From positions 29,013-93,012 of IMG/VR virus record IMGVR_UViG_3300033069_000976: DNA of 64,000 nucleotides, one strand, 5' to 3'. Below, in pieces: positions 28,461 to 49,671 of the stretch. Source of the DNA: a virus (taxonomy: Duplodnaviria; Heunggongvirae; Uroviricota; Caudoviricetes; Crassvirales). Below the pieces are notes generated by a model. The model searched no databases, was not told where the DNA came from, and saw nothing but the letters and a program-made list of their open reading frames with translations. Each line of letters opens with the position of its first letter. The stretch's first letter is position 1. Position numbers and translations under genes: made by a program.

Positions 28461-29437
28461 TGTTTCTCTAGTTTCTTACTTGTTAATTTTTTCTCAAGGG
28501 CAATCAGATCAACTTGGTTTTTCTCATCCAGTAATATTTCTACTAGTTCTTCTTTTGAAGTAGCTATAGTTATACCACCTTCCAGTACTTTACCACCTTG
28601 TCCAGGTCTGTATATAGAGTGTGTAAAGGCTTGTTCTACAAGATCTTTCACTTTAATCCTATCATCAGTTGTGTTTATCAACTCATTGAATAGTTTTACA
28701 GGTGCTAAACCTTTATTCTTACCTTCACGGAATTCTGTTTCTTTAAGTTGTGTATCAATTAAATTGTACACCATTTCTTCTTTAGTACTTTCTGTAACAG
28801 GTAATCCCATTAAACGAGCTATTTGTTTCTTTTTTGTAGGAGATAAAGATTCAAAAGCTACAATAGCTTTGTTAATCTCTTTCTTTCTACTATAAGTATC
28901 ACGTTGCTCTGCTTCATCATCTACTATATAATACTTAACCTCAGCAGGTACTTCGCCTCTCCTCCAAGAATCTAATGAAGGAGCAATCCTAGGATGTACT
29001 TTAATCCAGTTCCATGCAATTTCTTTCATTGGATCTGTAGTATCAAAATACTCTTCGTCATTACCTATTTTAACTGGAGAAACTCTTAATTCTGCTCCAA
29101 ACTTTGCAACAAGCTGCTCTTTAGCAGCAGCAAAATTCCAAAACAATGAAGTAGGTTCTAAGATACCAGGAACTCCAAGTGCATTTTCTAATCTGTCCTT
29201 AGTTTCTTTAATCCTTTCTATCTCTGCTTTCTTATCTTCGGCTGATAGCCTATCTAGATAAGGAGCTTTAATATCAAGTCCTGTTCTGTATTTACCAGAT
29301 ATTTCTTTAAATGGTAAAAACATTTCACTTGTTCCAGGAAACCTTGTAAATCCGTGTTTGTCCAATTGTTGATCTATAGTGTTTAATGTTCCACTATATG
29401 ACTTTTTAATAGGTGCTATTTTACCTGCTCTGCCCAT
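28457..29437 (-). CDS. Hypothetical structural protein (326 aa)
   Basis: ORF immediately after the capsid-gene terminator/attenuator. Confidence 0.4.
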   Translation of the reverse strand: MGRAGKIAPIKKSYSGTLNTIDQQLDKHGFTRFPGTSEMFLPFKEISGKYRTGLDIKAPYLDRLSAEDKKAEIERIKETKDRLENALGVPGILEPTSLFWNFAAAKEQLVAKFGAELRVSPVKIGNDEEYFDTTDPMKEIAWNWIKVHPRIAPSLDSWRRGEVPAEVKYYIVDDEAEQRDTYSRKKEINKAIVAFESLSPTKKKQIARLMGLPVTESTKEEMVYNLIDTQLKETEFREGKNKGLAPVKLFNELINTTDDRIKVKDLVEQAFTHSIYRPGQGGKVLEGGITIATSKEELVEILLDEKNQVDLIALEKKLTSKKLEKQ

Positions 29438-32923: not shown

Positions 32924-35524
32924 TTATTTCTTTTTAGCAGCAGGTTTCTTGGCTTTAGCAGCTTTTAGTTGATTGTTTGAAATAGCAAGGTCATTTTTCA
33001 TATTCTCCCTCTCCACTTTTCTATCTTCAGCTTTTTGCTTATTGTCATTCATCATCTTCTGCATCTCCAGAGAAACCTTCTTATTTTCAATATCCCTCTT
33101 TGTAAGTATCTCCTGATTCTTTGCAGCTAAATTAGCAATCTCCATAATATCTGGAGAACCATCACCATCTGTATCAGTAGAAGGAGCTTGGAAATAAGTT
33201 TTTATCTGTGCCTCTGTTATCTTCGTATTAGCATTAAGGTCTGCTACATATTTCTTCATTTCCATATCTTGTTGGAAATGGGCTTCTTCTTGCTCCAGAG
33301 TAACTGCAACTCTATTATTCTCAGACTCTATCTTAGATTGTTCAAGCTGCATTTCCTGCTTCTTCATTTCCTCTTGCTTATCTCTGAGGTCTTTGAATAT
33401 CTTCTGCATCTGCCTAAGTGAGTTAGTACTGTATAGTACACTTACATCATAGATAGAAGCACCATTCTGCATCATAGCCTGAGATAACTGCCTGAACTCA
33501 TTCAGTAATTGTTGGTCTTCAGATCTGGAAGTAGCAAATATCTTTAAGTCCTTGAGTTTCAAGTCTTTACCTAAAACTTTAATAAAGGCTTGCTCACCAA
33601 GATTGGTGATGTAAGATATAGTACTTTCTTCTTTATTACTTTCTATATATTGAGCAGCATCAAGTACAGCCTGATATAACTGGTCTACTACATAATTATG
33701 TGCTGCAAAATATGGTTCTGTTTGGGCAAAGGATTGAACAAGAGCATTCTGGTTAGCTGTAGCTGTTTCTGTAGCTAAAGCTCCACCAAGTCTTTGTCTG
33801 TTCATACCAATAAGTTCCCAGCACTCACTTTTTAGTTGAGCAGCCAATCTATATCTTGATTCTATCTCTGAAGTCCTTGTTAAATCCAGTCTACCATATT
33901 GACTACCAAAAGATGTTCCACCTTTAGTATTCTCAGGAGAATCATCTACAAAGATAACCCCTCTTTTTCTCGCAGCTTCTTCCCATATTTCCAAGGCATC
34001 TTGACCATCCCCATCTTTAGGAGTTGGAATATGTCTGATAGACATAGCTTGTACAACACCTTTTTCTTTCTCTAGTAATTCATAGAGTTGGTTCATACAA
34101 ACATTGTACAATACCTGGAATGGTTTCATTAAGTCAACCAGGGATTTAGCAGTTGTATTCTTTAGTTCATGAGTTACCCCTATAATTGGGGAGTAATCCA
34201 ACAGTTTAAAAGGTTTCATAAAGAATATATCTGGACCAATCTTTGTACCCTTATACCATTGATTTATCCATCCCCATTGAATATCTATTTCATTAGGGCT
34301 ACCCTCTTTATAGTTCTCATCAACAAGCATTTGTTGAGGTTCTCCTTCTTCATCAATATAGGTAAGTAAACCTGTTTTCTTTTTAGATAAATGATAAGAC
34401 TGTACTACAGTATATTTATAACCAAAGGAAGCGGTAGTATTTGTTAAACCTAACCAGTCCCTTAATTCATCATTATTCTCTTTCATCTCAGACTCAATCA
34501 TCATTCTTTCCTGAAGAACAAGTCTGTTATATGTATCATATATGATACTATCTGGACCAACTTTACCAGAGTAAAGATTTGATTCCCTAACATTTATAAG
34601 ACCATAATCCTGATGGGCTTTTCTAAGATGCTCTATTTCTTCTAAGGATAATTCAGGGAATTTTTCTATAATCTCAGAAATTTCCATTACCTGAACAGTT
34701 CCATTAGCATATGGAACATTCTGCTCACCAGATACTCCTGAAGTATATTTAGCATCAGGTGTTCCTAATTGCCAATAATTCTTAGGATTAACTACCTCTA
34801 TATTAAATCCAGTTTTTGAGTTATCCTCAAATATATGAAAGTACTCTCTGGAAGATATGAGTAAATCCCTGAAAGCATCTTCTGATTTTTCTTTACAATT
34901 AAACTGTACCTTTAAAGCAGTTAAGACATGGTTACCCCATTTCTCCCCTTCAGTAGTAAAGGTATTCATATATTCCTGTACCTTCTCAATAGAAAGCTGT
35001 ACAAACTCTTCTTGGGGAATACTACTAACATCTTCCCCTCTCATCGCTAACTCATTCATTAACAGTTTCTTACCCTCCTGGATAATAAGCTGTTGCATAA
35101 TACCAGTCTTGAATTGTAGCTCTTCATCCTTAGAATCATCATCAAAAGCTCTTACTTTATGCAAGTCAGGTCTTTTAGATAATTCCCCTATCATTGTATT
35201 AACAGGAGGATTCAGTATTGGATAATGCTTTACATATTGTGGAAGCTCTGTATTAGCCATTAGTACTTCTGTAAAAGATTGTACTTCAGGCTGTTGCTGA
35301 TAAAAGTCTGTATAATCAATTATACCTTTCATCAGGTCATAGTTCTTCACAAATGTCCTCCTATGCTTTTTATATTGGGCATAGGCTACATTAGCAAAGT
35401 AATCCATTGTGTTCTTTATCCAAGATGGATCTTCTTTCTCCTTATCAGTTTTAAACTGGTCAGGGAATATATTTAAATAGGCGAACCTTACATTTTCTTC
35501 TTTGGTTACACGGGTAATAATCAT
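32924..35524 (-). CDS. Portal protein candidate (866 aa)
   Basis: Size and position immediately downstream of, and overlapping, the large terminase. The basic C-terminal tail is KAKKPAAKKK. Confidence 0.55.
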   Translation of the reverse strand: MIITRVTKEENVRFAYLNIFPDQFKTDKEKEDPSWIKNTMDYFANVAYAQYKKHRRTFVKNYDLMKGIIDYTDFYQQQPEVQSFTEVLMANTELPQYVKHYPILNPPVNTMIGELSKRPDLHKVRAFDDDSKDEELQFKTGIMQQLIIQEGKKLLMNELAMRGEDVSSIPQEEFVQLSIEKVQEYMNTFTTEGEKWGNHVLTALKVQFNCKEKSEDAFRDLLISSREYFHIFEDNSKTGFNIEVVNPKNYWQLGTPDAKYTSGVSGEQNVPYANGTVQVMEISEIIEKFPELSLEEIEHLRKAHQDYGLINVRESNLYSGKVGPDSIIYDTYNRLVLQERMMIESEMKENNDELRDWLGLTNTTASFGYKYTVVQSYHLSKKKTGLLTYIDEEGEPQQMLVDENYKEGSPNEIDIQWGWINQWYKGTKIGPDIFFMKPFKLLDYSPIIGVTHELKNTTAKSLVDLMKPFQVLYNVCMNQLYELLEKEKGVVQAMSIRHIPTPKDGDGQDALEIWEEAARKRGVIFVDDSPENTKGGTSFGSQYGRLDLTRTSEIESRYRLAAQLKSECWELIGMNRQRLGGALATETATANQNALVQSFAQTEPYFAAHNYVVDQLYQAVLDAAQYIESNKEESTISYITNLGEQAFIKVLGKDLKLKDLKIFATSRSEDQQLLNEFRQLSQAMMQNGASIYDVSVLYSTNSLRQMQKIFKDLRDKQEEMKKQEMQLEQSKIESENNRVAVTLEQEEAHFQQDMEMKKYVADLNANTKITEAQIKTYFQAPSTDTDGDGSPDIMEIANLAAKNQEILTKRDIENKKVSLEMQKMMNDNKQKAEDRKVERENMKNDLAISNNQLKAAKAKKPAAKKK

Positions 35525-38500
35525 CCGAATATTTTTAATTGTTTCTTTCCTGTAAAATTTGTTGATCCAGTAAAGATTTTTGAATTTCCTTTAATTGGGT
35601 TTTTAGCATAATAAGATTGCATTCTTGGGTCAGTTTTGTCACTCCCTACTGCACCTATAACAGGGTCTAATTTATAAGCCAAAGCAACTGCTAATTCAGC
35701 AGCAATTACCCTATCTGTATTTACTTTATGCTTAGGGTCTTTAGAGAATTTAGTAATTTCTTCCAGAAGCATTGGGTCAGGTATTCTTGATACACCTGTA
35801 GTTTCTTTTATAATACTTCCATTTTCATCTTTCTCTATATCTATTATTTCATCCAGGTAGGATTTGAATGTACCATCCAGAAAATTTCTAATTGCGGTAG
35901 CAGACCTATGTATTCCTTTCTTTCTCTTTACAGTAGTATTTGGTACATATTCTTTTAACCATTCTGGCTGGTCTTCTAAATAATGCCCATCATTTCTGGC
36001 AATCATAAAGTCAATAAAAGACATCTCATCATTCTCACACAGGGTTCTGGCATTATAATACTTAATCAGATTCCTGGCATTCTCATTCCATTTCTCTTTA
36101 CTCTGTGGTCTTGCAGCATAGCAAGCTACAAACATATTCTGATATTTCTCTGAAGAAATACCATGCATTCTTTTATAAATATAAACTACTCCAAGTGAAT
36201 CTGAGTATTCTGCTTCACCCTGTCTGTAAGGGTCAACCCCAGCTACATACAATCCAAAAGGAGGGTGTTCCACGGGAAACTCCCATATCTGAATAGGAGC
36301 ATCAGTATCTTGAGTCTTAACAGGAAACTCAGTTATAAATGGTTTATCAGAGAATTCATGTACTATTTTTTCTCCGTTATGGAATATCTTAACAGGTGTC
36401 CCTGTTACACCTAAATCTCTTAACCTTGTTTGTTGAGCTTTAGCAGCCTCTACATTAAAATCATTATGTGTTAAAACCAAGAAGCTATCTGAAGGTTTCA
36501 GGGGCCAGTAGGCTTTAAACTTCAGAATTGTTTTTGAGTTACCTGATTTAACAGCTTTATCATACTCTGGTTCCCACCACTCTCTTAAGGCTCTTTCTTC
36601 ATTAGAAACCAGTATAGTTATATTTTGTAAATCTGGATGGTCTATACCAAGATATTCAGCCAGAGTCTTTGGTTCCTTATAAGCCATTTTAGCTCTGGTA
36701 GCAGCTATAAATCTTCCTATCTTTCCACCACCTTCCCATTCATTCTCAAACTCAAGCATGTTATAGGAATACGGATGGTAGAAAACTTCCGCTGCTTCAG
36801 CACCAACTTCCATATCACCACCAGTTCCACATAACATAACCAAACAAGATGGTTTATTACCTCCACCAGACCACCAGCAACCATCACTATCTTTTATACA
36901 ACCAATAAGATTAGGTAGAGTACCAATCTCATCAATAAGGTGAAAAGAAGGTCTAGTACCATTAGCAGCCATAGTATCAGTACCAGCCTGATAGTTCCTG
37001 ACAAGTATTTTTGAATTGGAAGATTTTGGATTTGGTAAGTTAGATGATTTATCTTTCCAACCAGCTTTAATCTCTTTCTTCCAGTCCGATACAAGTCTTT
37101 GCTTTTTAAATATTGGGTGAATATTAAGCAACCCATCTTCTATCTTATCCGTAGCTAGTTTGATATAATTAGCTGCTCCACCAGATATTACACACTCACT
37201 ATTACTATAAAATGTATATTGATGTCCAGCACAAGATCCTGCAATAACTGAATTATGTGTTACTGTATATCCATCAGTTAAAAAACATTTTGACTTATTA
37301 TCTACTGTAATACAAGTTGCCTGTTCTTTACCAAAATACTCTATATTTACTATAGATGTCTTATCCCCTCTATACTTACCTATATTATTTAACTTTCTTG
37401 GCAGTTTGAATATTGGCTTATCTGTCATAAGATTAAACCTATATTTATCTTTAGCTAAAGTTACTACACCTTTATTTTTATAACTATTTTTTGTCTTTTT
37501 GATAGTTACCTGAATACCTAAACTTCTTACTAATCTATAAAAACCATTTGCAATATTTACATCTGTTGTACAAAATTCTATTACTCCATTTTTCCCACAA
37601 CAACCATCTGTATCCATTATTCCTCTTAATAATTCCATTCTTTGCTCTACAGAGGAATAAAAATAACAATTAGGTATATGTTTATTATTTATTAAATCTA
37701 GCTCTTGAAATTTAGATAAGAGAGAATTTCTTAGTCCACCTTTCATTCCATTACTTATATTATAAGAAATACCATGTTTCCTTACTTGTAAATTATTTTC
37801 TTCTGCATATGTATATACAAAATCTGAAATTTCTTTATCTATTGTAGTTATTCCTAAAGTTCTTTTATTACCATCTCCTAACCATAATCCTAAAAAATAA
37901 GGATTTATTGGTAAATAATTCTCAGAATATTCAACAGGTTTATTATTTGGTATAAAATACCTATATGCCAAACCTTTACTATTTTTATAAGATTTTTTCC
38001 TATTTATCAGGTAGTCAGTTTTTATAGAAGAAAGATTTTTATCCTCATATTTACGGGATGAACTATTCCAAACTCTCCATATATGATTATCACAAGAATA
38101 TAAAACCCTTCCATCTCTTAGGGTAATTTTATATAAGTCTATTAATCCTTGTGGGTAAACCCCAGTAATAGTTGTTAATTTACCATCATCCCCAAATATC
38201 TTATCACCTATTTTAGCATTACCAATTAATATTTCTCCATTATTTGTATATAGAGTGGCTGTATTTATAAGTGCTTTACCAAAGTCCCTGCTACCTACTA
38301 ATGGATAGAATTTACCTTCTTCATTACATCTTTCCAGGTCATTAAATATGTCCCAATCTATATCCCTTAATAAAGGTGTTTCAATTTTCCTTACCTTTTT
38401 CTTATTAGGTAATTCTACATACATTGCAATCTTCCAATAGACCGTATGAAAATACAGTCTGCCGGGAACATGAACTGCCCCATCAGCCAAGTAAAACCCA

Positions 38501-38619
38501 TTCATACACCTGTCTTTCTCTTTTTTCCAGTATTCTATATAAGTCTCCTTATCTGCTGGATTATCAGTTAGTATAGGTTCTACCTGGTCTTTAAACCAGA
38601 TATTTGTAGTTGTTTGCAT
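35521..38619 (-). CDS. terL: Terminase large subunit interrupted by an in-frame intein (1032 aa precursor)
   Basis: Walker A, VGSRDFGK|…|SVIAG, is split by the intein. The C-terminal nuclease-like region has acidic motifs. Gene order terL-portal follows. Confidence 0.7.
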   Translation of the reverse strand: MQTTTNIWFKDQVEPILTDNPADKETYIEYWKKEKDRCMNGFYLADGAVHVPGRLYFHTVYWKIAMYVELPNKKKVRKIETPLLRDIDWDIFNDLERCNEEGKFYPLVGSRDFGKALINTATLYTNNGEILIGNAKIGDKIFGDDGKLTTITGVYPQGLIDLYKITLRDGRVLYSCDNHIWRVWNSSSRKYEDKNLSSIKTDYLINRKKSYKNSKGLAYRYFIPNNKPVEYSENYLPINPYFLGLWLGDGNKRTLGITTIDKEISDFVYTYAEENNLQVRKHGISYNISNGMKGGLRNSLLSKFQELDLINNKHIPNCYFYSSVEQRMELLRGIMDTDGCCGKNGVIEFCTTDVNIANGFYRLVRSLGIQVTIKKTKNSYKNKGVVTLAKDKYRFNLMTDKPIFKLPRKLNNIGKYRGDKTSIVNIEYFGKEQATCITVDNKSKCFLTDGYTVTHNSVIAGSCAGHQYTFYSNSECVISGGAANYIKLATDKIEDGLLNIHPIFKKQRLVSDWKKEIKAGWKDKSSNLPNPKSSNSKILVRNYQAGTDTMAANGTRPSFHLIDEIGTLPNLIGCIKDSDGCWWSGGGNKPSCLVMLCGTGGDMEVGAEAAEVFYHPYSYNMLEFENEWEGGGKIGRFIAATRAKMAYKEPKTLAEYLGIDHPDLQNITILVSNEERALREWWEPEYDKAVKSGNSKTILKFKAYWPLKPSDSFLVLTHNDFNVEAAKAQQTRLRDLGVTGTPVKIFHNGEKIVHEFSDKPFITEFPVKTQDTDAPIQIWEFPVEHPPFGLYVAGVDPYRQGEAEYSDSLGVVYIYKRMHGISSEKYQNMFVACYAARPQSKEKWNENARNLIKYYNARTLCENDEMSFIDFMIARNDGHYLEDQPEWLKEYVPNTTVKRKKGIHRSATAIRNFLDGTFKSYLDEIIDIEKDENGSIIKETTGVSRIPDPMLLEEITKFSKDPKHKVNTDRVIAAELAVALAYKLDPVIGAVGSDKTDPRMQSYYAKNPIKGNSKIFTGSTNFTGKKQLKIFG
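37252..38274 (-). mobile_element. Intein (about 341 aa) with a LAGLIDADG homing-endonuclease domain, inserted in the terminase P-loop between GK and S
   Basis: Block A after Ala1 (ALINTATLYTNNGEILIGNAKIGDKIFGDDG); block B SCDNHIW; LAGLIDADG motifs YFLGLWLGDGN and LLRGIMDTDGC; blocks F/G …CFLTDGYTVTHN followed by Ser+1. Confidence 0.7.
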
Positions 38620-39543: not shown

Positions 39544-39912
39544 TTAAGTTCCATCAGGTTTACTTTCTTTAACATAGGATGTCCATTTTATCTCCTGTTT
39601 ATTATCAGGATGTGATCTGTTATAAATATCAGCTCCGCAGGAACTACTTAATGAAGCTGTCTTTGTCTTTATGGGACAGGAACAAAGTGTACAAAATTCC
39701 TCTATCCTGGAGAATTTTTTACCAGACAACAATTCTGCATTCTTAGACATAAACGGGCAACCAGCACAAATAGTTCTTCTCTGCATGATTATCTCTTTCT
39801 CATCTTCAGGAAGATTCTCATGATTTAGTTCATTCCAGATACCCTCCATTACCTGCTTTGGATTTTTTAATCCCCTCTTAGCCATTTCAAAATACTCAGA
39901 TAGTAAACTCAT
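39544..39912 (-). CDS. Cys-rich (putative zinc-binding) protein (122 aa)
   Basis: CAGCPF…CTLCSCP cysteine clusters. Confidence 0.4.
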   Translation of the reverse strand: MSLLSEYFEMAKRGLKNPKQVMEGIWNELNHENLPEDEKEIIMQRRTICAGCPFMSKNAELLSGKKFSRIEEFCTLCSCPIKTKTASLSSSCGADIYNRSHPDNKQEIKWTSYVKESKPDGT

Positions 39913-40190
39913 TTTACTCTTTTATTTAAATTATCAACTAAAGTAGTTAATGTTTCTAATTTCTCTGGATTATCTTTAACCCTTTCAATACCTTTTGAAA
40001 TACCATTTATGTACTTCTTTAGTTTATTTTGAGAAAGATAAATTTTTCCAAATCCAGAGAATTCCAACTCATCATGTATCTTGACAGCTTTTAAAGCATC
40101 CTCTCCTTGAAAAGCTACCACTTTAAAAACAGTATCTTCAGAAAGTTCCATAGCTGTAGCTACTTGTTTAATAAGTACTTCCTTATTCAT
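39909..40190 (-). CDS. Hypothetical protein (93 aa)
   Basis: ORF with 4-nt overlaps. Confidence 0.4.
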   Translation of the reverse strand: MNKEVLIKQVATAMELSEDTVFKVVAFQGEDALKAVKIHDELEFSGFGKIYLSQNKLKKYINGISKGIERVKDNPEKLETLTTLVDNLNKRVK

Positions 40191-40530
40191 GTCCCATATT
40201 TAGTTGTAACAATATACCGTCTTTAATATTAAACAGTAGCTGTGGACTGACCACTATTCTTCTGTTGTCCTTTGTTAAATAACCTTGTTTAACTAACTTA
40301 GTTACGGTTTTCCTCACTGACTTATAAGTACTTTTATATACATCTATAAAATCATTCCTTTGGTCTCCCCTAGCTATATTTCCTTTTATAGCTGTATAGG
40401 CTAGTATTCTTATCTCTAATGGACTTAACTTAAAGTTGTTCAGTACATCTAGTATACTATAGAACTTTACAGCCAGTTCAAACTCATCTTTAAACTTTTT
40501 CCTTATCTTTATAGCTACAAAATTAGTCAT
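40183..40530 (-). CDS. Hypothetical protein (115 aa)
   Basis: ORF preceded on its strand by the CTTAAATAGCATTA box. Confidence 0.4.
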   Translation of the reverse strand: MTNFVAIKIRKKFKDEFELAVKFYSILDVLNNFKLSPLEIRILAYTAIKGNIARGDQRNDFIDVYKSTYKSVRKTVTKLVKQGYLTKDNRRIVVSPQLLFNIKDGILLQLNMGHE

Positions 40531-40561: not shown

Positions 40562-40924
40562 TTAATTTGATTTAATGCTATTTAAGTTAGAATTTTTTAC
40601 AAACTCAGCTAATTTGGCTTCAAAAGCATCCAATCTTTCCTCAAATTTCTTAAAGTCCCATGAACATAGTATATCTCCATGACTCTTGGTAAAGACTAAA
40701 GTACACTGAAAGCCTTTAGAGAATACATCTTCAAAAGCAGTCTCTGGCGGATACATTTCCTGCCACCCCTCTATTTCACTATATGGTAGCTTTATCCAAC
40801 TGTCTATAGTTGGAATATCCAAACTCCTACTATCTGATAACTGTGCTTCTTTTTCTTTTAGGTCAGCAAGATAAGCATCTGTAACCCTTACTGGAAATTT
40901 AAAAAACCTTTCTGAATATTTCAT
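40562..40924 (-). CDS. Hypothetical protein (120 aa)
   Basis: ORF. Confidence 0.4.
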   Translation of the reverse strand: MKYSERFFKFPVRVTDAYLADLKEKEAQLSDSRSLDIPTIDSWIKLPYSEIEGWQEMYPPETAFEDVFSKGFQCTLVFTKSHGDILCSWDFKKFEERLDAFEAKLAEFVKNSNLNSIKSN

Positions 40925-42640: not shown

Positions 42641-43078
42641 TTACATTCCATATTGATTTCCTTTATAATTCTTTTTACCATTTATTTTAGCATGATTCTC
42701 ATTTTCTAGTTTAGAAACCCATTCTAAATTATCTACATGATTGTTATTTTTATCACAATCTTTATGATTTATTTCTATCTTATTTTCTGGGTTTAATAGG
42801 AAATATTCTCCTACCAATCTGTGAACTAAGAACTTTTTAGATTTTCCATTCTTTTTTAATTCCACTATTAAATAGCCAGTATTATTTTTAAATGGTAATT
42901 TCTCCTTTGCTTTAGAAATTCTCTCTGATTTTGTTCCAAATCTATTACCACATTTAATAACTCTTGATAATGAGATTATTTTTCCAATATTTGAAATTTG
43001 ATAGAAACCCTCATAACCTTTAATATCTTTCCAAAATGTAGATGATATAACTTCTTCCATACTAAGTTTATTCTCCAT
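42641..43078 (-). CDS. HNH homing endonuclease (NUMOD4 + HNH_3 type, 145 aa)
   Basis: WKDIKGYEGFYQISNIGKI (NUMOD4) and INHKDCDKNNNHVDNLEWVSKLEN (HNH). Confidence 0.65.
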   Translation of the reverse strand: MENKLSMEEVISSTFWKDIKGYEGFYQISNIGKIISLSRVIKCGNRFGTKSERISKAKEKLPFKNNTGYLIVELKKNGKSKKFLVHRLVGEYFLLNPENKIEINHKDCDKNNNHVDNLEWVSKLENENHAKINGKKNYKGNQYGM

Positions 43079-43544
43079 AAAATGGTGTTATATGTATTTG
43101 TTTTAATATCTGTCTTAGTTCATTGATACATTTACATTCTCCTTCAAATAATGTTTCAGCTTTGTCAAATTTTTCTCCACCAGTAAAGTCTCCCTTTATT
43201 TTTAACTTATGGTCGCGAAAACCATAATTCAAAAAAACATTATAACACTTATATCCTCCAAAATTCTGTAAACCTGTACCAAATCTTTTATCTTCATTTA
43301 TCTCAAACCAATGGTCTATAGATTTAGCTTTTAAAATAAATCCACAACTTTCAATTTGTTCTTTAGTTAGATAAGGAACTCTTATTTCATTTCTATCTAC
43401 CCATTTAGACAAATCTTCTAATCTGTGAAATTTACAGATGATTTCTTTTTTCCACTCTACAGGCATTATATCCTGTATCTCACATTCATACCCAACTCTT
43501 ATATCTGAAATTTCAGGCTGAAAATATTTTAAATTGTCTTCCAT
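43068..43544 (-). CDS. Hypothetical protein (158 aa)
   Basis: ORF between the two HNH genes. Confidence 0.4.
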   Translation of the reverse strand: MEDNLKYFQPEISDIRVGYECEIQDIMPVEWKKEIICKFHRLEDLSKWVDRNEIRVPYLTKEQIESCGFILKAKSIDHWFEINEDKRFGTGLQNFGGYKCYNVFLNYGFRDHKLKIKGDFTGGEKFDKAETLFEGECKCINELRQILKQIHITPFYGE

Positions 43545-44068
43545 AGTCTTTTTGTTTTAATTCCATAAATAGTATTGTAATTCATATTTGGATAAAAGTT
43601 TTTATGAACTTCAGAAATTTTCATAGTTTTACACTTTTCTCTTATATCTAAAACTTGTTCTTTTGTTAATTTAGAGTTTATATTTTTCTCCCCATCCTGC
43701 CAAGTTTTGTCTTTTAATCCCAAATTCAATGCATGATTTATATTCTCAGAAGGTGTTACCCATTCTAAATTTGAAACCATAGCATTTGCTTTTATTCCAT
43801 CTTTATGATTTACCTGTGCTTTATTCTCAGGATTCTTTAAAAATACTTCTGCAACTATTCTATGTATAGTCTTAGATAATTGCTTTCCTCCTCCACATAA
43901 AGTAATTGCTGGATAACCATCATTAGTTAATCTACATTTCATTATGTAAGCTTTTCTTCTTATAAGTCCAGTATTAGATACTTCATAATATTCTTCATAA
44001 CCAGGAATATCTTTCCATATTTCATCTTCTATAGATGATGTAAAGTATTTATTTTCCATATTCCTCAA
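43529..44068 (-). CDS. HNH homing endonuclease (NUMOD4 + HNH_3 type, 179 aa)
   Basis: WKDIPGYEEYYEVSNTGLI and VNHKDGIKANAMVSNLEWVTPSEN. Confidence 0.65.
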   Translation of the reverse strand: MRNMENKYFTSSIEDEIWKDIPGYEEYYEVSNTGLIRRKAYIMKCRLTNDGYPAITLCGGGKQLSKTIHRIVAEVFLKNPENKAQVNHKDGIKANAMVSNLEWVTPSENINHALNLGLKDKTWQDGEKNINSKLTKEQVLDIREKCKTMKISEVHKNFYPNMNYNTIYGIKTKRLWKTI

Positions 44069-45053: not shown

Positions 45054-45515
45054 ATGGGAAATTTTGAAAGGTTTAAACTGGCTAACCGTAAAGCTGGTAA
45101 TGTTTCATTCTATGAGAAGGATGAATTGTTGGAAGACCTCAACCCAAGCACAGTGAGCTTGTTCTACAGTGCCAAAGCTGGATTATGGTACATGAGGCTG
45201 TCCAATGGTACTGATACTATCCAGATAGGCATCATGGATGAGTGTAAGCCAGAAAAGAATGTGCAGGACGCTGCTGATGAAATCAATGCTGCTGCTGGTG
45301 TTCTGAAGGTTGACCATAAGAACAAGAAGGCTTTGGCTACTATTGCCAAGCTTGAAGGGCTTGTTACAGGCTTCATAACAGAAACTTTCGACAGTGAAGA
45401 GAACTTCCTGTATGGTGGAGAGTCTGAGAAAGGATACTGGTTGAGAATCAGCCCTAATGCCCCAGGAACAAATACTCCTGTTGCAGAGCTTCAGTATGAG
45501 GCTGTTGTAGTGTAA
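45054..45515 (+). CDS. Hypothetical protein (153 aa) with markedly higher GC and a different codon usage from its neighbours
   Basis: ORF followed directly by a hairpin plus T-run terminator; frequent ctg/gtg/gac/aag codons. Confidence 0.55.
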   Translation: MGNFERFKLANRKAGNVSFYEKDELLEDLNPSTVSLFYSAKAGLWYMRLSNGTDTIQIGIMDECKPEKNVQDAADEINAAAGVLKVDHKNKKALATIAKLEGLVTGFITETFDSEENFLYGGESEKGYWLRISPNAPGTNTPVAELQYEAVVV

Positions 45516-45521
45516 TTAATT

Positions 45522-45554
45522 GAGAGAGAGTGACTCTATCACTCTCTTTCTTTT
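45522..45554 (+). terminator. Rho-independent terminator
   Basis: GAGAGAGAGTGA/TCACTCTCTTTC stem followed by TTTT. Confidence 0.6.
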
Positions 45555-45730
45555 ATATATATGGGTGGGATATTATATATCTTAGGGTGGGCTATATAAA
45601 ATTGTTGGTATCTCACGGCTTATAAAACACACTATTGATTTTGTAAGTCATTATTAATCAATTAGTTACAATATATTATAAATAATCACTATAAATAGCC
45701 TTGTATTACATAGTACTAGGTATTTATTTA

Positions 45731-45783
45731 TTGATAATCAATAAATATTTAGTGATTATCAATTATAATTCGTTGATTATCAA
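45731..45783. promoter_or_regulatory. Three phased palindromic sites TTGATAATCAA / GTGATTATCAA / TTGATTATCAA, centres about 20-22 bp apart (operator-like array)
   Basis: The perfect 19-bp palindrome TTTATTGATAATCAATAAA plus two further half-palindromic copies. A 4th copy at 46268..46278 shares the 15-mer GTTGATTATCAATGA with site C. Confidence 0.45.
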
Positions 45784-45857
45784 TGAAAATAGTGGAGTAA
45801 ACACATCTACTGCTTAATAACAATTAAATCAAATAATGTAAATCAATCAACTTTAGT

Positions 45858-45872
45858 CCTTAAATAGCATTA
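45858..45872 (+). promoter_or_regulatory. Conserved box CCTTAAATAGCATTA, copy 1. Further copies lie at 46333..46347, 47986..47999 and on the minus strand at 40573..40585.
   Basis: A 13-14-mer identical in 4 places, each 2-40 nt upstream of a start codon or an RNA region. Confidence 0.4.
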
Positions 45873-46261
45873 AAAACAAGTGTGGGTTGTATCTGTATTA
45901 CTTAGTCATGAATAAGTAGTATAAGCTCTAATAAATAAGCTCTGGTAATCTGTCATGGATTATTAACTTATCATTGTAAAGAGTGTATTATAACATATAG
46001 TTCTAATTAGTATGTTATAGCAGTAATGGATATATTACAGGGAATATACCTGCGAATACTCATTCTGTCCTAGATACTAAGGATATAGGTTATGATGACA
46101 AAATTTAGTGGAATAACTAGGTCATAACTTTCCTGAAGCAGATAGTGCTTAACAAATCAAGACTATCCTAAGGTTCTGACATATAGACTGGTGTTACCTG
46201 GAATATGTTAATAATATAACTAGGTTTATTGTAGATGTGTACCTAGTTATATTATTTTTAT
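45873..46261 (+). ncRNA. Candidate non-coding RNA (about 390 nt) between the conserved box and an intrinsic terminator
   Basis: No ORF of 20 or more codons. It ends in the hairpin ATAACTAGGT…ACCTAGTTAT plus ATTATTTTTA at 46215..46261. Confidence 0.35.
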
Positions 46262-46349
46262 AACTAGTTGATTATCAATGAGTTCAACACCTCTTCAGCT
46301 TATAAGGCATTAATAAAAACACCTAAAAACTAATAAATCAAACCTTAAA

Positions 46350-46511
46350 TAGCATTACAATGAAAAAGCTAGCTTATCAACAGTTTATCTCTGATCTTAA
46401 ACAAGATAAAGACTTTATATCTTTTAAGACTAAAGCTCATGATATTAAGAGTGGTTTTAGTTATGGTGTTGTAGTTGTTAATACTAATAGATTTCTTATT
46501 GAAAAACCTTT
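46350..46511 (+). CDS. Small hypothetical protein (53 aa)
   Basis: ATG 2 nt after the CCTTAAATAGCATTA box. Confidence 0.35.
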
Positions 46512-47566: not shown

Positions 47567-47990
47567 TATGAAAAATTTTAAAGAGTTAAGAAAATACTTG
47601 GCTGGTATACCAGCCATAAACTATGGGGGTTGTGGATATGCCGCCTTATTTATGTATCAATGGTTAAAGATACATAAACCAAAGTTGGAAGTAGAAATTG
47701 TATTTGGATATTGTTATGATACACCTTCTTATCATGACAATGATGCATATTTTAAGGGTGTGCATAGTATTACAAACTCTTGCAGTCATGCTTTTCTGAA
47801 AATTAAAAAGAAACATATTGACTGTAAAACAAATATAGATGTAAGACATTATCCATTTAATCACAATATTTCTGATCCTAAATTTGTATTAAAAGCTTTG
47901 GAGGATACAGATAATTGGAATTCAAGCTTTGACAGGAGTTGGGTGAGAATAATGGAGAACAACATTGGCATCAAATTATCGGACATTTAA
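47529..47990 (+). CDS. Hypothetical protein (153 aa)
   Basis: ORF; its stop overlaps copy 3 of the conserved box. Confidence 0.45.
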   Translation: MLTKRIYHPCSYNMKNFKELRKYLAGIPAINYGGCGYAALFMYQWLKIHKPKLEVEIVFGYCYDTPSYHDNDAYFKGVHSITNSCSHAFLKIKKKHIDCKTNIDVRHYPFNHNISDPKFVLKALEDTDNWNSSFDRSWVRIMENNIGIKLSDI

Positions 47991-48016
47991 ATAGCATTAA
48001 CACTAAAAACTAAAAA

Positions 48017-48394: not shown

Positions 48395-48816
48395 ATATAT
48401 TCCCAAAGTTGTCAGAGTGAGGGAAAAACTACAGTTAAAGACTCTATATTAGAGAACCAGAAACTTCTTAGTTATTAGTCTTAGGGGACAATCAGCTCGA
48501 GATGCCTAAGACGTGCTTAGTGTGAGAATCACTAACAAGGAGAATAAATAGAAATAAACTGAATCAGCTAACATGTAGATGGAAACATCATTAGGGTGAA
48601 GGGACATAGTAATATGTACAGACCAGCTAGACTCTGGAATAGCTAACCAGACAAAAAGGAATTCTTTTCATTAATGAGCCTTTTTTTGACACTAGGACTT
48701 GGAGTTACGAGAAAATATTAAAATGTTGTGGAAAGCTCCAAGCCTTCCCTATCAATTCTCATTAACATTTTAATACTTATTCATATGGTAGACATCAACG
48801 CTCTCATGAGCATAGA
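48395..48816 (+). ncRNA. ORF-free, relatively GC-rich region of about 420 nt with multiple stem-loops; candidate structured RNA
   Basis: GTCTTAGG…CCTAAGAC and TTAGTG…CACTAA hairpins. GC clearly above that of the flanking coding DNA. Confidence 0.3.
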
Positions 48817-49018
48817 CATGGTGTTGTATAAACAATGCCCAAAAAAACAATTTTACAAAGGGATTTTAGTATTAGATATTACAGATGGTACATACGGAGT
48901 AATTGACAGTGTACATGGCAAAATCGCCTATGTACAGTATAAAGATGGAATCCATACCATATCTGTAAATAATCTTCGTCGTCTTGTTGCTACGGATGAT
49001 AGAAGGCGATGGAATTAG
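48817..49018 (+). CDS. Small hypothetical protein (67 aa; the track ORF extends to 48728 but its N-terminal part looks non-coding)
   Basis: Internal ATG with a plausible sequence (MVLYKQCPKKQF). Confidence 0.35.
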
Positions 49019-49037
49019 TCGAAACAAATTGACAATT

Positions 49038-49072
49038 AAAGAGCGTTGGTAGAATAATCAACGCTCTTTTTC
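49038..49072 (+). terminator. Rho-independent terminator
   Basis: AGAGCGTTG…CAACGCTCT followed by TTTTT. Confidence 0.6.
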
Positions 49073-49359
49073 CATCTATTATTGTATTACTGTGTAAATC
49101 AGTAACAAAGAGAAAGGGTACAAAATTAACTGGGCATAGTTGGTATTAACCCAACATACTAAGCTGGTAGTATAAGTGACTATAAACAGTTTACCTTTTT
49201 CTTGGGGCTTATATCTTTGATTATTAGTGAGTTAGCTTACGAGACTAACTTTAAATGAGTCATTCACTGTTAATTCCAGCTTTAGATATAATGGAAACCT
49301 AGGCAATGAAGCAGCTTGATAATCAAAGTATTAGTGCGACACAAATAAAAACTAAACAT

Positions 49360-49671
49360 ATGAAAAAGGTAAAACTTACCAAAGAGAATGAATTTAATCT
49401 CAGAATGCTCTTAATAGGAATAGCTATGGCTTTGCTATTATTACAAAGCTGCAATAAACCAAAATTAAATAATGAGACTATTTATGTCGAATATTTCAAA
49501 AAAGGATATATTATATATCCTGATTATGTATGTTCTGACACTATGATTGTAAGAGATCATATAGGTCTTAATAAAGCTTTGGCTTATTTGGAACAGACAA
49601 ACTCATCATTAGTAGAAACTGATGATGAAATTGACAGTTTATTTCATCAATATTGTATAATTAAACCATAA
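49360..49671 (+). CDS. Putative lipoprotein (104 aa from the internal start; the track ORF starts at 49306)
   Basis: MKKVKLT…LLIGIAMALLLLQSCNKPK signal-peptide/lipobox-like. Confidence 0.45.
   Translation: MKKVKLTKENEFNLRMLLIGIAMALLLLQSCNKPKLNNETIYVEYFKKGYIIYPDYVCSDTMIVRDHIGLNKALAYLEQTNSSLVETDDEIDSLFHQYCIIKP

Follow-up and report, generated by a model that had tools for sequence, protein, structure and literature searches.

We examined a cluster of short palindromes at the point where leftward and rightward genes diverge in a contig of a Crassvirales phage, using a 64,000-nucleotide stretch of the IMG/VR record IMGVR_UViG_3300033069_000976 (positions 29,013 to 93,012, hereafter the window). 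The phased palindromes are real and non-random, and they are local copies of a 27-bp dyad that is widespread in the plasmids, phages, and chromosomes of Bacteroidota. No phage regulator is linked to them. In our estimation there is about an even chance that the dyads serve as sites for a host-encoded dimeric architectural protein, likeliest a homodimer of the HU/integration host factor (IHF) or DNABII family, that would organize the early-promoter/origin region; the identity of this binder and its functional output, whether transcription or replication, we infer from comparative analysis. We regard the cluster as a putative set of architectural host-factor sites in the control region of a mobile element.

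The palindromes lie in a non-coding cassette of about 850 bp (45516-46360) that adjoins the divergence point. The cassette contains, in order, a terminator, a pair of GGGTGGG boxes, a degenerate dyad, three palindromes, a promoter-like module (P1), an RNA of about 390 nt with its terminator, a fourth palindrome, and a second promoter-like module (P2). Exact copies of the 11-bp core TTGATWATCAA start at 45731, 45773, 46268, and 49316 in the window, with a one-mismatch copy at 45752 (Table 1). An earlier reading made from the sequence alone (the sequence-only reading) had described three phased palindromes and the copy at 46268, and this arrangement is confirmed as non-random, although several of its dimensions required revision. 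The first palindrome, reported as 19 bp, is perfect over 23 bp. Of the two 11-bp dyads said to follow it, copy 3 is exact, whereas copy 2 is palindromic over only the 9-bp TGATTATCA. The centers of the three lie at 45736, 45757, and 45778, giving a spacing of 21 + 21 bp rather than about 22 and 20 bp. Copy 4, which is placed after the terminator of the RNA and upstream of P2, had been put about 55 bp before the second CTTAAATAGCATTA box; it ends 65 nt before that box (46344), and its center lies 71 nt from the start of the box. The corresponding distance from the end of copy 3 to the first box (45859) is 75 nt. Measured from where the conserved box starts, dyad centers lie 71-123 bp upstream, with no overlap. 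The fifth exact copy at 49316-49326 and the degenerate dyad at 45643-45669 had been overlooked. All five control-region copies sit outside open reading frames (ORFs).

These figures greatly exceed expectation. Four exact cores compare with 0.13-0.24 expected in 64 kb under Markov models of orders 1-4. With up to one mismatch allowed, 22 matches are found, compared with 5.7 ± 2.6 in shuffled sequences, none of which (0/100) reached that count. To correct for the free choice of palindrome by the earlier reader, we also allowed any 5-1-5 palindrome in third-order Markov simulations. Three copies of one such palindrome fell within 600 bp in 1 of 300 simulations, and a pair of the same palindrome within 60 bp in 11 of 300. 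Chance and low complexity were rejected on these shuffle, Markov, and free-choice statistics. The sequence was also assembled independently in two other samples, identically in L001 and with approximately 98% identity in L154, which excludes an assembly artefact.

The core TTGATWATCAA forms the center of a 27-bp dyad, ATAACTnnTTGATWATCAAnnAGTTAT. Copy 4 agrees with this consensus at 21 of its 23 specified positions. The outer arms (ATAACT/AGTTAT) are found in copy 4, in the 45643 dyad, and on the left side of copy 3, and are missing from copies 1 and 2. When the window was scanned with a 27-bp position weight matrix (PWM) built from genome sites, copy 4 and the degenerate dyad were the two best matches; copies 3, 1, and 5 also scored above 12, relative to a simulation maximum of 15.8.

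An exact search for the 27-mer, with one genome per species, returned 108 genome stretches, 105 of them from Bacteroidota and spread over many orders. The 735 kb of genome loci that we fetched contain 164 further TTGATnATCAA sites, compared with approximately 2.3 expected. The central base is A or T in all 164, and 147 (~90%) lie outside long open frames, which cover 72% of the bases. None of 75 dyads with an ORF on both sides falls inside an ORF. Several chromosomal copies lie 13-21 nt past tRNA 3′ ends, and no Rfam family covers the dyad in 18 genome loci. The genes beside the genomic dyads are mutually unrelated and share no common function, and the operator of a conserved regulon and the end of a mobile element were rejected for this reason. 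A site for FNR/CRP was rejected because the spacer is 1 nt rather than 4.

The dyad also occurs in viral sequence. Scanning viral contigs for two neighboring cores identified 35 loci, about 25 of which share the 25-bp-period unit TTGATWATCAAtgAGTTATAAnnnn while being otherwise unrelated. Many of these arrays separate small genes that run in the same direction or precede terminase genes (the latter in L018), and the 111 neighboring ORFs include no common regulator or Rep family. p-crAssphage carries one dyad in a divergent intergenic region, approximately 125 bp before the RepL gene gp88 and followed by two 29-bp direct repeats. The phage cr8_1 likewise has one dyad in a divergent intergenic region, whereas in phi14:2 no dyad with at least 18 matches turned up in the first 12 kb or the last 6.4 kb.

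Some of the dyads belong to plasmid-type origins. Here 4-8 iterons at regular spacing and a rep gene come after the dyad, which is itself distinct from the iterons. The adjoining gene encodes RepL in L124 and Rep_3 in L049, L084, and the Saprospira grandis plasmid L157; in the Prevotella veroralis Rep_3 plasmid L155, a dyad-like copy lies about 110 bp past the rep stop codon. Short-query BLAST searches against plasmids returned mostly noise, and only matches to Bacteroidota were used. In L157 two separate DnaA boxes, TGTGGATAA, also stand beside the dyad, and DnaA was rejected as the binder on the strength of this separate pair. Contig L124 (JBBRPX010000332.1, 3175 bp), from a Chitinophagales metagenome-assembled genome (MAG), has identical ends and is apparently a circular plasmid of about 3 kb; with a dyad, four iterons, RepL, and ParA, it constitutes a compact candidate replicon. 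Since initiators of different families accompany the dyad and no small regulator is common to the tiny plasmids, the binder is most simply a host protein; a 3-kb plasmid that encodes no shared small regulator likewise points to a host factor. Searches of the literature for the literal motif sequences returned nothing relevant, and nothing was found there on a Bacteroides plasmid origin with IHF or on a crAssphage origin.

The extended half-site points to the type of host factor. In 160 sites selected on the 11-mer alone, the profile reads W at position 0, ATCAA at positions 1-5, four weakly specified positions, and then T (93%), T (92%), and A/G (93%) at +10 to +12. The 13-bp IHF consensus is WATCAA/R-N4-TTR (PMC9820253). 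The profile, WATCAAnnnnTTR, is the same consensus with the same spacing and occurs on both halves of the dyad, which would suit an architectural host factor; no such consensus has been reported for Bacteroidota in the literature searched. Within the 850-bp cassette there are three full matches, compared with about 0.14 expected, and each is half of a dyad: the right half of the degenerate dyad (45656-45668, plus strand) and, on the minus strand, 45766-45778 in copy 3 and 46261-46273 in copy 4. The right side of copy 3 fails the outer-arm match, and copy 1 lacks the outer TTR/YAA elements. The consensus is not enriched over the whole window (13 matches versus 10.2 expected).

The edges of the dyad behave differently from its center. 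Flanks beyond the 27-mer extend the palindrome by at least 3 bp in 37 of 109 copies, compared with about 7 in shuffled pairings, and the extending sequences are mutually unrelated. Outside the one MAG in which copies are exceptionally numerous, the figures are 15/32 and approximately 1/32. Full complementarity of the inner "nn" positions is seen in only 37/109 copies. The element is therefore constrained in sequence at its center and in structure at its edges. DNABII proteins also bind four-way junctions and cruciforms (PMC9820253), and the combined constraint fits a protein that, like these, reads both a duplex consensus and a cruciform or junction, a fit rather than a proof of binding here.

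Bacteroides possesses a chromosomal host factor of the IHF/HU family, BHFa, that is required for CTnDOT integration (PMC6606824, PMC3809561). The phage itself encodes a PF00216 (HU/IHF-family) protein that is 58-99% identical in the relatives L002 and L003. This protein is unlikely to bind the dyads directly, because its match ends at position 63 of the 90-position profile, its seven homologs do not conserve the arm proline, and the AlphaFold model, of moderate confidence (pLDDT ~70), has a helical C-terminal half and no β-ribbon arms. That it could modulate a host dimer is speculation.

A dyad takes the same position upstream of each of two conserved modules. The two-part module, ACAC[AC]TCT[AT]C followed after about 47 nt by CTTAAATAGCATTA, occurs in six copies in four related phages with a spacing of 56-58 bp. 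The CTTAAATAGCATTA box has eight matches with at most two mismatches, compared with 2.6 expected, and by itself also precedes two other genes (47986-47999, and 40573-40586 on the minus strand). When the six modules are aligned, the dyad position is homologous in all of them, its sequence being degenerate in L002 and L003. The RNA between P1 and P2 ends in a hairpin resembling an intrinsic terminator (46211-46255), followed by a T run. From the sequences of the window, L154, and L003, RNAalifold predicts a structure with 134 pairs, and 11 of these show compensatory changes. In Rfam only a tRNA matched the window at gathering score, and nothing in 45400-46500 was significant. The 5′ end of the RNA, used as a pattern, was found at one locus in the metagenome scan and at none in viral contigs.

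The relatives L002 and L003 were reached through the stand-alone 153-aa gene at the divergence point. Its product has no Pfam match, has five homolog clusters among 5.8 billion proteins, and has no relatives in viral contigs; the contigs of these clusters yielded L002 (84% identical) and L003 (61% identical). In both, the promoter-like modules persist at 56-58 bp spacing. In place of the triple palindrome, they carry three AAGTGGGAA direct repeats and two GGGAGAT repeats, and dyads at homologous positions have degenerated to GTGATTGTG or TTGATTGTCAG, the position of copy 3 being occupied by GTGATTGTG. The swap maps to L002 10700-10800 and L003 10810-10960 and looks like an exchange of repeat type within one cassette. 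L154 encodes a 40%-identical 153-aa protein beside an almost identical control cassette; the whole cassette is nearly unchanged there while the genes on either side are different or strongly diverged, which indicates that the cassette moves as a unit. The GGGTGGG pair is conserved wherever relatives cover its position (L002, L003, L004, L006, and L154), with GGGCGGG as the second box in L008; in L005 the terminator is separated by an HNH gene from the sole GGGTGGG box visible before the contig end. The composite pattern of palindrome, gap, and box was not found in viral contigs.

How a host architectural protein might operate here can be outlined from this arrangement. One dyad sits at a fixed place upstream of each module, in the order dyad, ACACNTCTWC, about 47 nt, and CTTAAATAGCATTA; P1 precedes the structured RNA, and P2 precedes the early-looking genes that come first on the rightward side. 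Before P1 the site is triplicated at 21 bp, or two helical turns, so that the three copies face one side of the helix, and a stronger full-length dyad 80 bp further upstream flanks the triplicate. Occupancy would then bend or wrap the AT-rich DNA into a higher-order complex that helps opening, with early transcription as a possible output, or replication starting at this spot, or the two together. The proposal that the array binds a dimeric regulator of the early units is in part borne out by this layout, the dyad taking the same upstream position at both modules; its phage-specific form, a repressor, is unsupported. A bolder formulation appears to us distinctly less likely than the general one: that the dyad is an undescribed Bacteroidota element for a homodimeric IHF-like DNABII protein, a symmetric, cruciform-capable "double IHF site" that marks replication origins and the early control regions of Bacteroidota phages and plasmids, among them the part of p-crAssphage near RepL, and that has multiplied in a REP-like manner (REP, repetitive extragenic palindromic) in some genomes. 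Here, three phased core-only copies and two full dyads would nucleate a complex that melts AT-rich DNA so that early transcription and replication can begin.

Several observations weigh against assigning the dyads to an IHF-like host protein. The IHF consensus was defined for an enterobacterial heterodimer. The footprint of IHF is about 30-35 bp per dimer, and the spacing of 21 bp in the window, or mostly 25 bp in viral arrays, is shorter than this and therefore excludes simultaneous classical occupancy. In a symmetric reading of the E. coli IHF-H′ complex, half-sites would lie about 2 bp further apart than in the dyad. The three phased copies mostly lack the TTR elements found in approximately 90% of chromosomal sites, and these core-only copies could bind something else. 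The degeneration of the dyads in L002 and L003 implies that the dyad is dispensable or replaceable. P1 and P2 are putative promoters recognized by their conservation, and they do not resemble the -33/-7 promoter consensus of Bacteroidota. Finally, the genomic counts are dominated by one Microscillaceae MAG, Prado074 (JALONJ01; among L046-L153; Cytophagales), which supplies 62 of the 108 stretches and 144 of the 164 additional sites. In the 414 kb fetched from this MAG there are 64 exact 27-mers and 144 cores, a density (about 1 per 2 kb) that resembles REP-type amplification. Outside it, the excess of cores persists at 20 versus approximately 1 expected.

Among the other explanations, the best surviving holds that the region is the replication origin of the phage, the dyads acting either like IHF sites beside iterons (as in pSC101, R6K, and P1) or as iterons themselves, with any promoter association being secondary. 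We consider this possible, at odds well short of even. The plasmid settings, where the dyad adjoins iterons and Rep_3 or RepL genes, and p-crAssphage, where it lies upstream of RepL and is followed by direct repeats, speak for it, as do the AT-rich surroundings of the dyads and the iteron-like AAGTGGGAA repeats at the array position in L002 and L003. The cumulative GC skew also reaches its minimum at about 45 kb, at the gene divergence point; since this switch coincides with the switch in transcription direction, the two are confounded and the skew is not independent evidence of an origin. Against it, no Rep_3, RepL, or other initiator match lies beside the region in the window, copy 4 stands about 490 bp away at the equivalent position before the second promoter-like module, and many viral arrays are placed amid co-directional small genes or ahead of terminase genes. 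As for the suggestion of origin iterons, the dyad does accompany iterons and rep genes in plasmids and RepL in p-crAssphage, but it is distinct from the iterons, and the repeats in the window are palindromes common to other replicons rather than specific to one element.

A lambda-type operator array, in which a dimeric helix-turn-helix (HTH) repressor of the phage resembling Cro or CI binds the phased dyads cooperatively, and copy 4 as well, to switch early transcription, was the comparison drawn by the sequence-only reading. The dyad symmetry, the spacing of two helical turns, and the proximity to promoter-like modules would suit such an array, and the array region, like lambdoid immunity regions, differs from one close relative to the next. 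None of the sites overlaps the promoter-like box, and the dyad is also present in unrelated phages, tiny plasmids, and host chromosomes and so is not phage-specific. Pfam searches of 20 flanking ORFs detected no HTH, Cro, CI, or repressor family, and genes for lysogeny were not seen. On the minus strand, a 115-aa protein (40183-40530) has faint SarA/MarR-like similarity (E = 0.06) and is 97% identical in L002, which is without the array; the small ORFs present only in the window are absent from L154 despite its identical control region and are therefore not linked to the array. Lacking a linked repressor, promoter-core overlap, and specificity to one phage, the lambda comparison is improbable.

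We hold it similarly improbable that the palindromes act through a hairpin or cruciform, either as an entry site for a polymerase or primase or as a REP- or terminator-like RNA hairpin. Covariation of the flanks, which lengthens the palindrome, would favor this, and the chromosomal copies 13-21 nt after tRNA 3′ ends are followed by T runs, as in terminators; between tandem genes, about half of the copies are found no more than 50 bp from the stop codon of the preceding gene. The virion RNA polymerase of phi14:2 transcribes only single-stranded or denatured DNA in vitro (bioRxiv 10.1101/2020.03.07.982082). The infrequent complementarity of the inner positions would weaken an already AT-rich stem, copies 2 and 3 have little hairpin potential past 9-11 bp, and T runs after the element are not clearly commoner than A runs (50 versus 37). 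The array lies upstream of P1 and is probably untranscribed. No DFDxD polymerase motif occurs anywhere in the window, so a virion RNA polymerase is not assumed, and a promoter for a crAss-type enzyme was rejected, the 1543-aa virion protein also lacking any relative of solved structure.

Overlapping sigma-70-like promoters on both strands (TTGATA, 17 nt, GATAAT) are a very remote reading of the 21-bp-spaced palindromes: such pairs score 9-10 of 12 on both strands, and the middle promoters of phi14:2 resemble -35/-10 promoters (bioRxiv 10.1101/2020.03.07.982082), but promoter-like matches in the region are not above shuffles (17 versus 14.2 ± 4.3), the common 25-bp arrays would give 21-nt spacers, and the single dyads of plasmids and chromosomes cannot form such promoters.

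Table 1 Features of the control region and associated genes in the window.
Feature	Sequence	Position	Strand	Remarks
Phage gene of the HU/IHF family (PF00216)		39909-40190	-	28.1 bits vs cut-off 22.4; profile positions 1-63 of 90
153-aa gene		45054-45515	+	Stand-alone, with own terminator; at divergence point; visibly G+C-richer than surroundings
Terminator hairpin of 153-aa gene		45522-45550	+	Left border of non-coding cassette
GGGTGGG pair	GGGTGGG	45563-45569 and 45585-45591	+	22 bp apart; directly after 153-aa gene terminator
Degenerate full-length dyad	GTAAGTCATTATTAATCAATTAGTTAC	45643-45669	.	PWM 19.4, second best in window
Copy 1	core TTGATAATCAA	45731-45741	.	Within 23-bp perfect palindrome TATTTATTGATAATCAATAAATA, 45725-45747; PWM 12.2
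Copy 2	GTGATTATCAA	45752-45762	.	One mismatch, core only
Copy 3	ATAATTcgTTGATTATCAA; core TTGATTATCAA	45765-45783; core 45773-45783	.	Left arm intact; PWM 13.3
P1 upstream element	ACACATCTAC	45801-45810	+	58 bp before box
P1 box (putative promoter)	CTTAAATAGCATTA	45859-45872	+	Structured non-coding RNA directly after
Structured non-coding RNA, ~390 nt		45873-46259	+	Between P1 and P2; L003 11033-11415, L154 1674-2062
Copy 4, full-length dyad	ATAACTAGTTGATTATCAATGAGTTCA; core TTGATTATCAA	46260-46286; core 46268-46278	.	PWM 28.3, top match in window
P2 upstream element	ACACCTCTTC	46287-46296	+	From module alignment
P2 box (putative promoter)	CTTAAATAGCATTA	46344-46357	+	2 nt before ATG of first rightward ORF (46360)
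Fifth exact core		49316-49326	.	PWM >12; 35 nt before lipoprotein-like ORF start

The surrounding genome is that of a tailed phage. The minus strand from 5 to 39 kb encodes portal, major capsid, large terminase, and large virion proteins, followed by small leftward genes up to 44841 and small rightward genes from 46360. The capsid protein is at most 24-25% identical to entries of the phage collection, which makes this phage at best a distant relative of crAss-like phages, and a megablast of 44-48 kb against phage records gave no match. The large terminase (35521-38619, minus strand) comprises 1032 aa, compared with 690-691 aa in L002 and L003, and contains at residues ~315-386 a LAGLIDADG homing-endonuclease insert (PF05204 and PF14528) that suggests an intein. 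Two further genes (42641-43078 and 43529-44068, minus strand) resemble HNH/NUMOD4-type homing endonucleases and vary in presence among relatives. After the first early gene, L002 (11094-11270) and L003 (11560-12240) have a long inverted repeat with half-dyad-like arms, TTAATAATCAATTAGTTAT and ATAACTAATTGATTATTAG, between which an HNH endonuclease gene is inserted in L003. The fifth core lies in a second long stretch without a convincing ORF (48400-49360), partly conserved in L002 (13540-14700), and pairs as an inverted repeat with TTTGATTATTAG at ~49216, the arm at 49316 being TTGATAATCAAAG. This inverted-repeat arrangement recurs in L002, and the stretch may be another structured RNA.

If the dyads are indeed sites for a host architectural protein, they provide a concrete DNA handle on how phages and plasmids of Bacteroidota, including crAss-like phages, use such a protein, and they point to the likely origin/control region of p-crAssphage. 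To our knowledge, and in the literature searched, the origins and early promoters of crAss-like phages are uncharacterized. The dyad would also be a defined element for building Bacteroidota vectors, and the specificity of HU/IHF proteins in this phylum would be testable against the predicted consensus. Replacing the label of a lambda-like operator by that of a host-factor site directs binding assays to other proteins.

Partial counterparts can be found in several known systems. The RNA between P1 and P2 is reminiscent of the early intergenic regions of phi14:2, which are highly transcribed (bioRxiv 10.1101/2020.03.07.982082). The N4 virion RNA polymerase hairpin promoters resemble the array in being short, threefold-repeated palindromes of a lytic phage's early region, but the window has no virion-polymerase motif, and the present element extends to plasmids and host chromosomes. 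The Fur box has the consensus GATAATGATAATCATTATC. It shares with the dyad the central 9-mer TGATAATCA and was rejected because only this 9-mer core is in common: its flank is GATAA rather than ATAACTnnT, it lacks TTR at +10 to +12, and the neighbors of the dyad have no common function. Like the lambda OR/OL operators, the dyads are clustered symmetric sites in a divergent control region, at a spacing that would allow cooperativity on one face; they differ in not overlapping the core of the putative promoter, in having no cognate repressor gene, and in being distributed across a phylum and on plasmids. The E. coli REP elements and bacterial interspersed mosaic elements (BIMEs), including the IHF-binding RIP/RIB class, are similarly extragenic palindromes that almost never occur in genes, have an IHF-type consensus, reach high copy number in some genomes, and often lie just after gene or tRNA 3′ ends; the present dyad, by contrast, is conserved across many orders rather than species-specific and is also found in phages and plasmids. 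Classical IHF sites are known from the origins of iteron plasmids (pSC101, R6K gamma, and P1), from lambda pL, from the upstream sites of Mu Pe, and from I1 of lambda cosB. The dyads share their settings, next to iterons and DnaA boxes or ahead of rep genes, promoter-like modules, and terminase genes (L018), and their half-site W-ATCAA-N4-TTR is the same in sequence and spacing (PMC9820253). Whereas classical sites lack symmetry and have an A-tract as their other side, the present element is a perfect dyad of overlapping inverted halves around one central W, arranged in tight arrays with a 21-25 bp period below the IHF footprint, in phages and plasmids whose host phylum is Bacteroidota.

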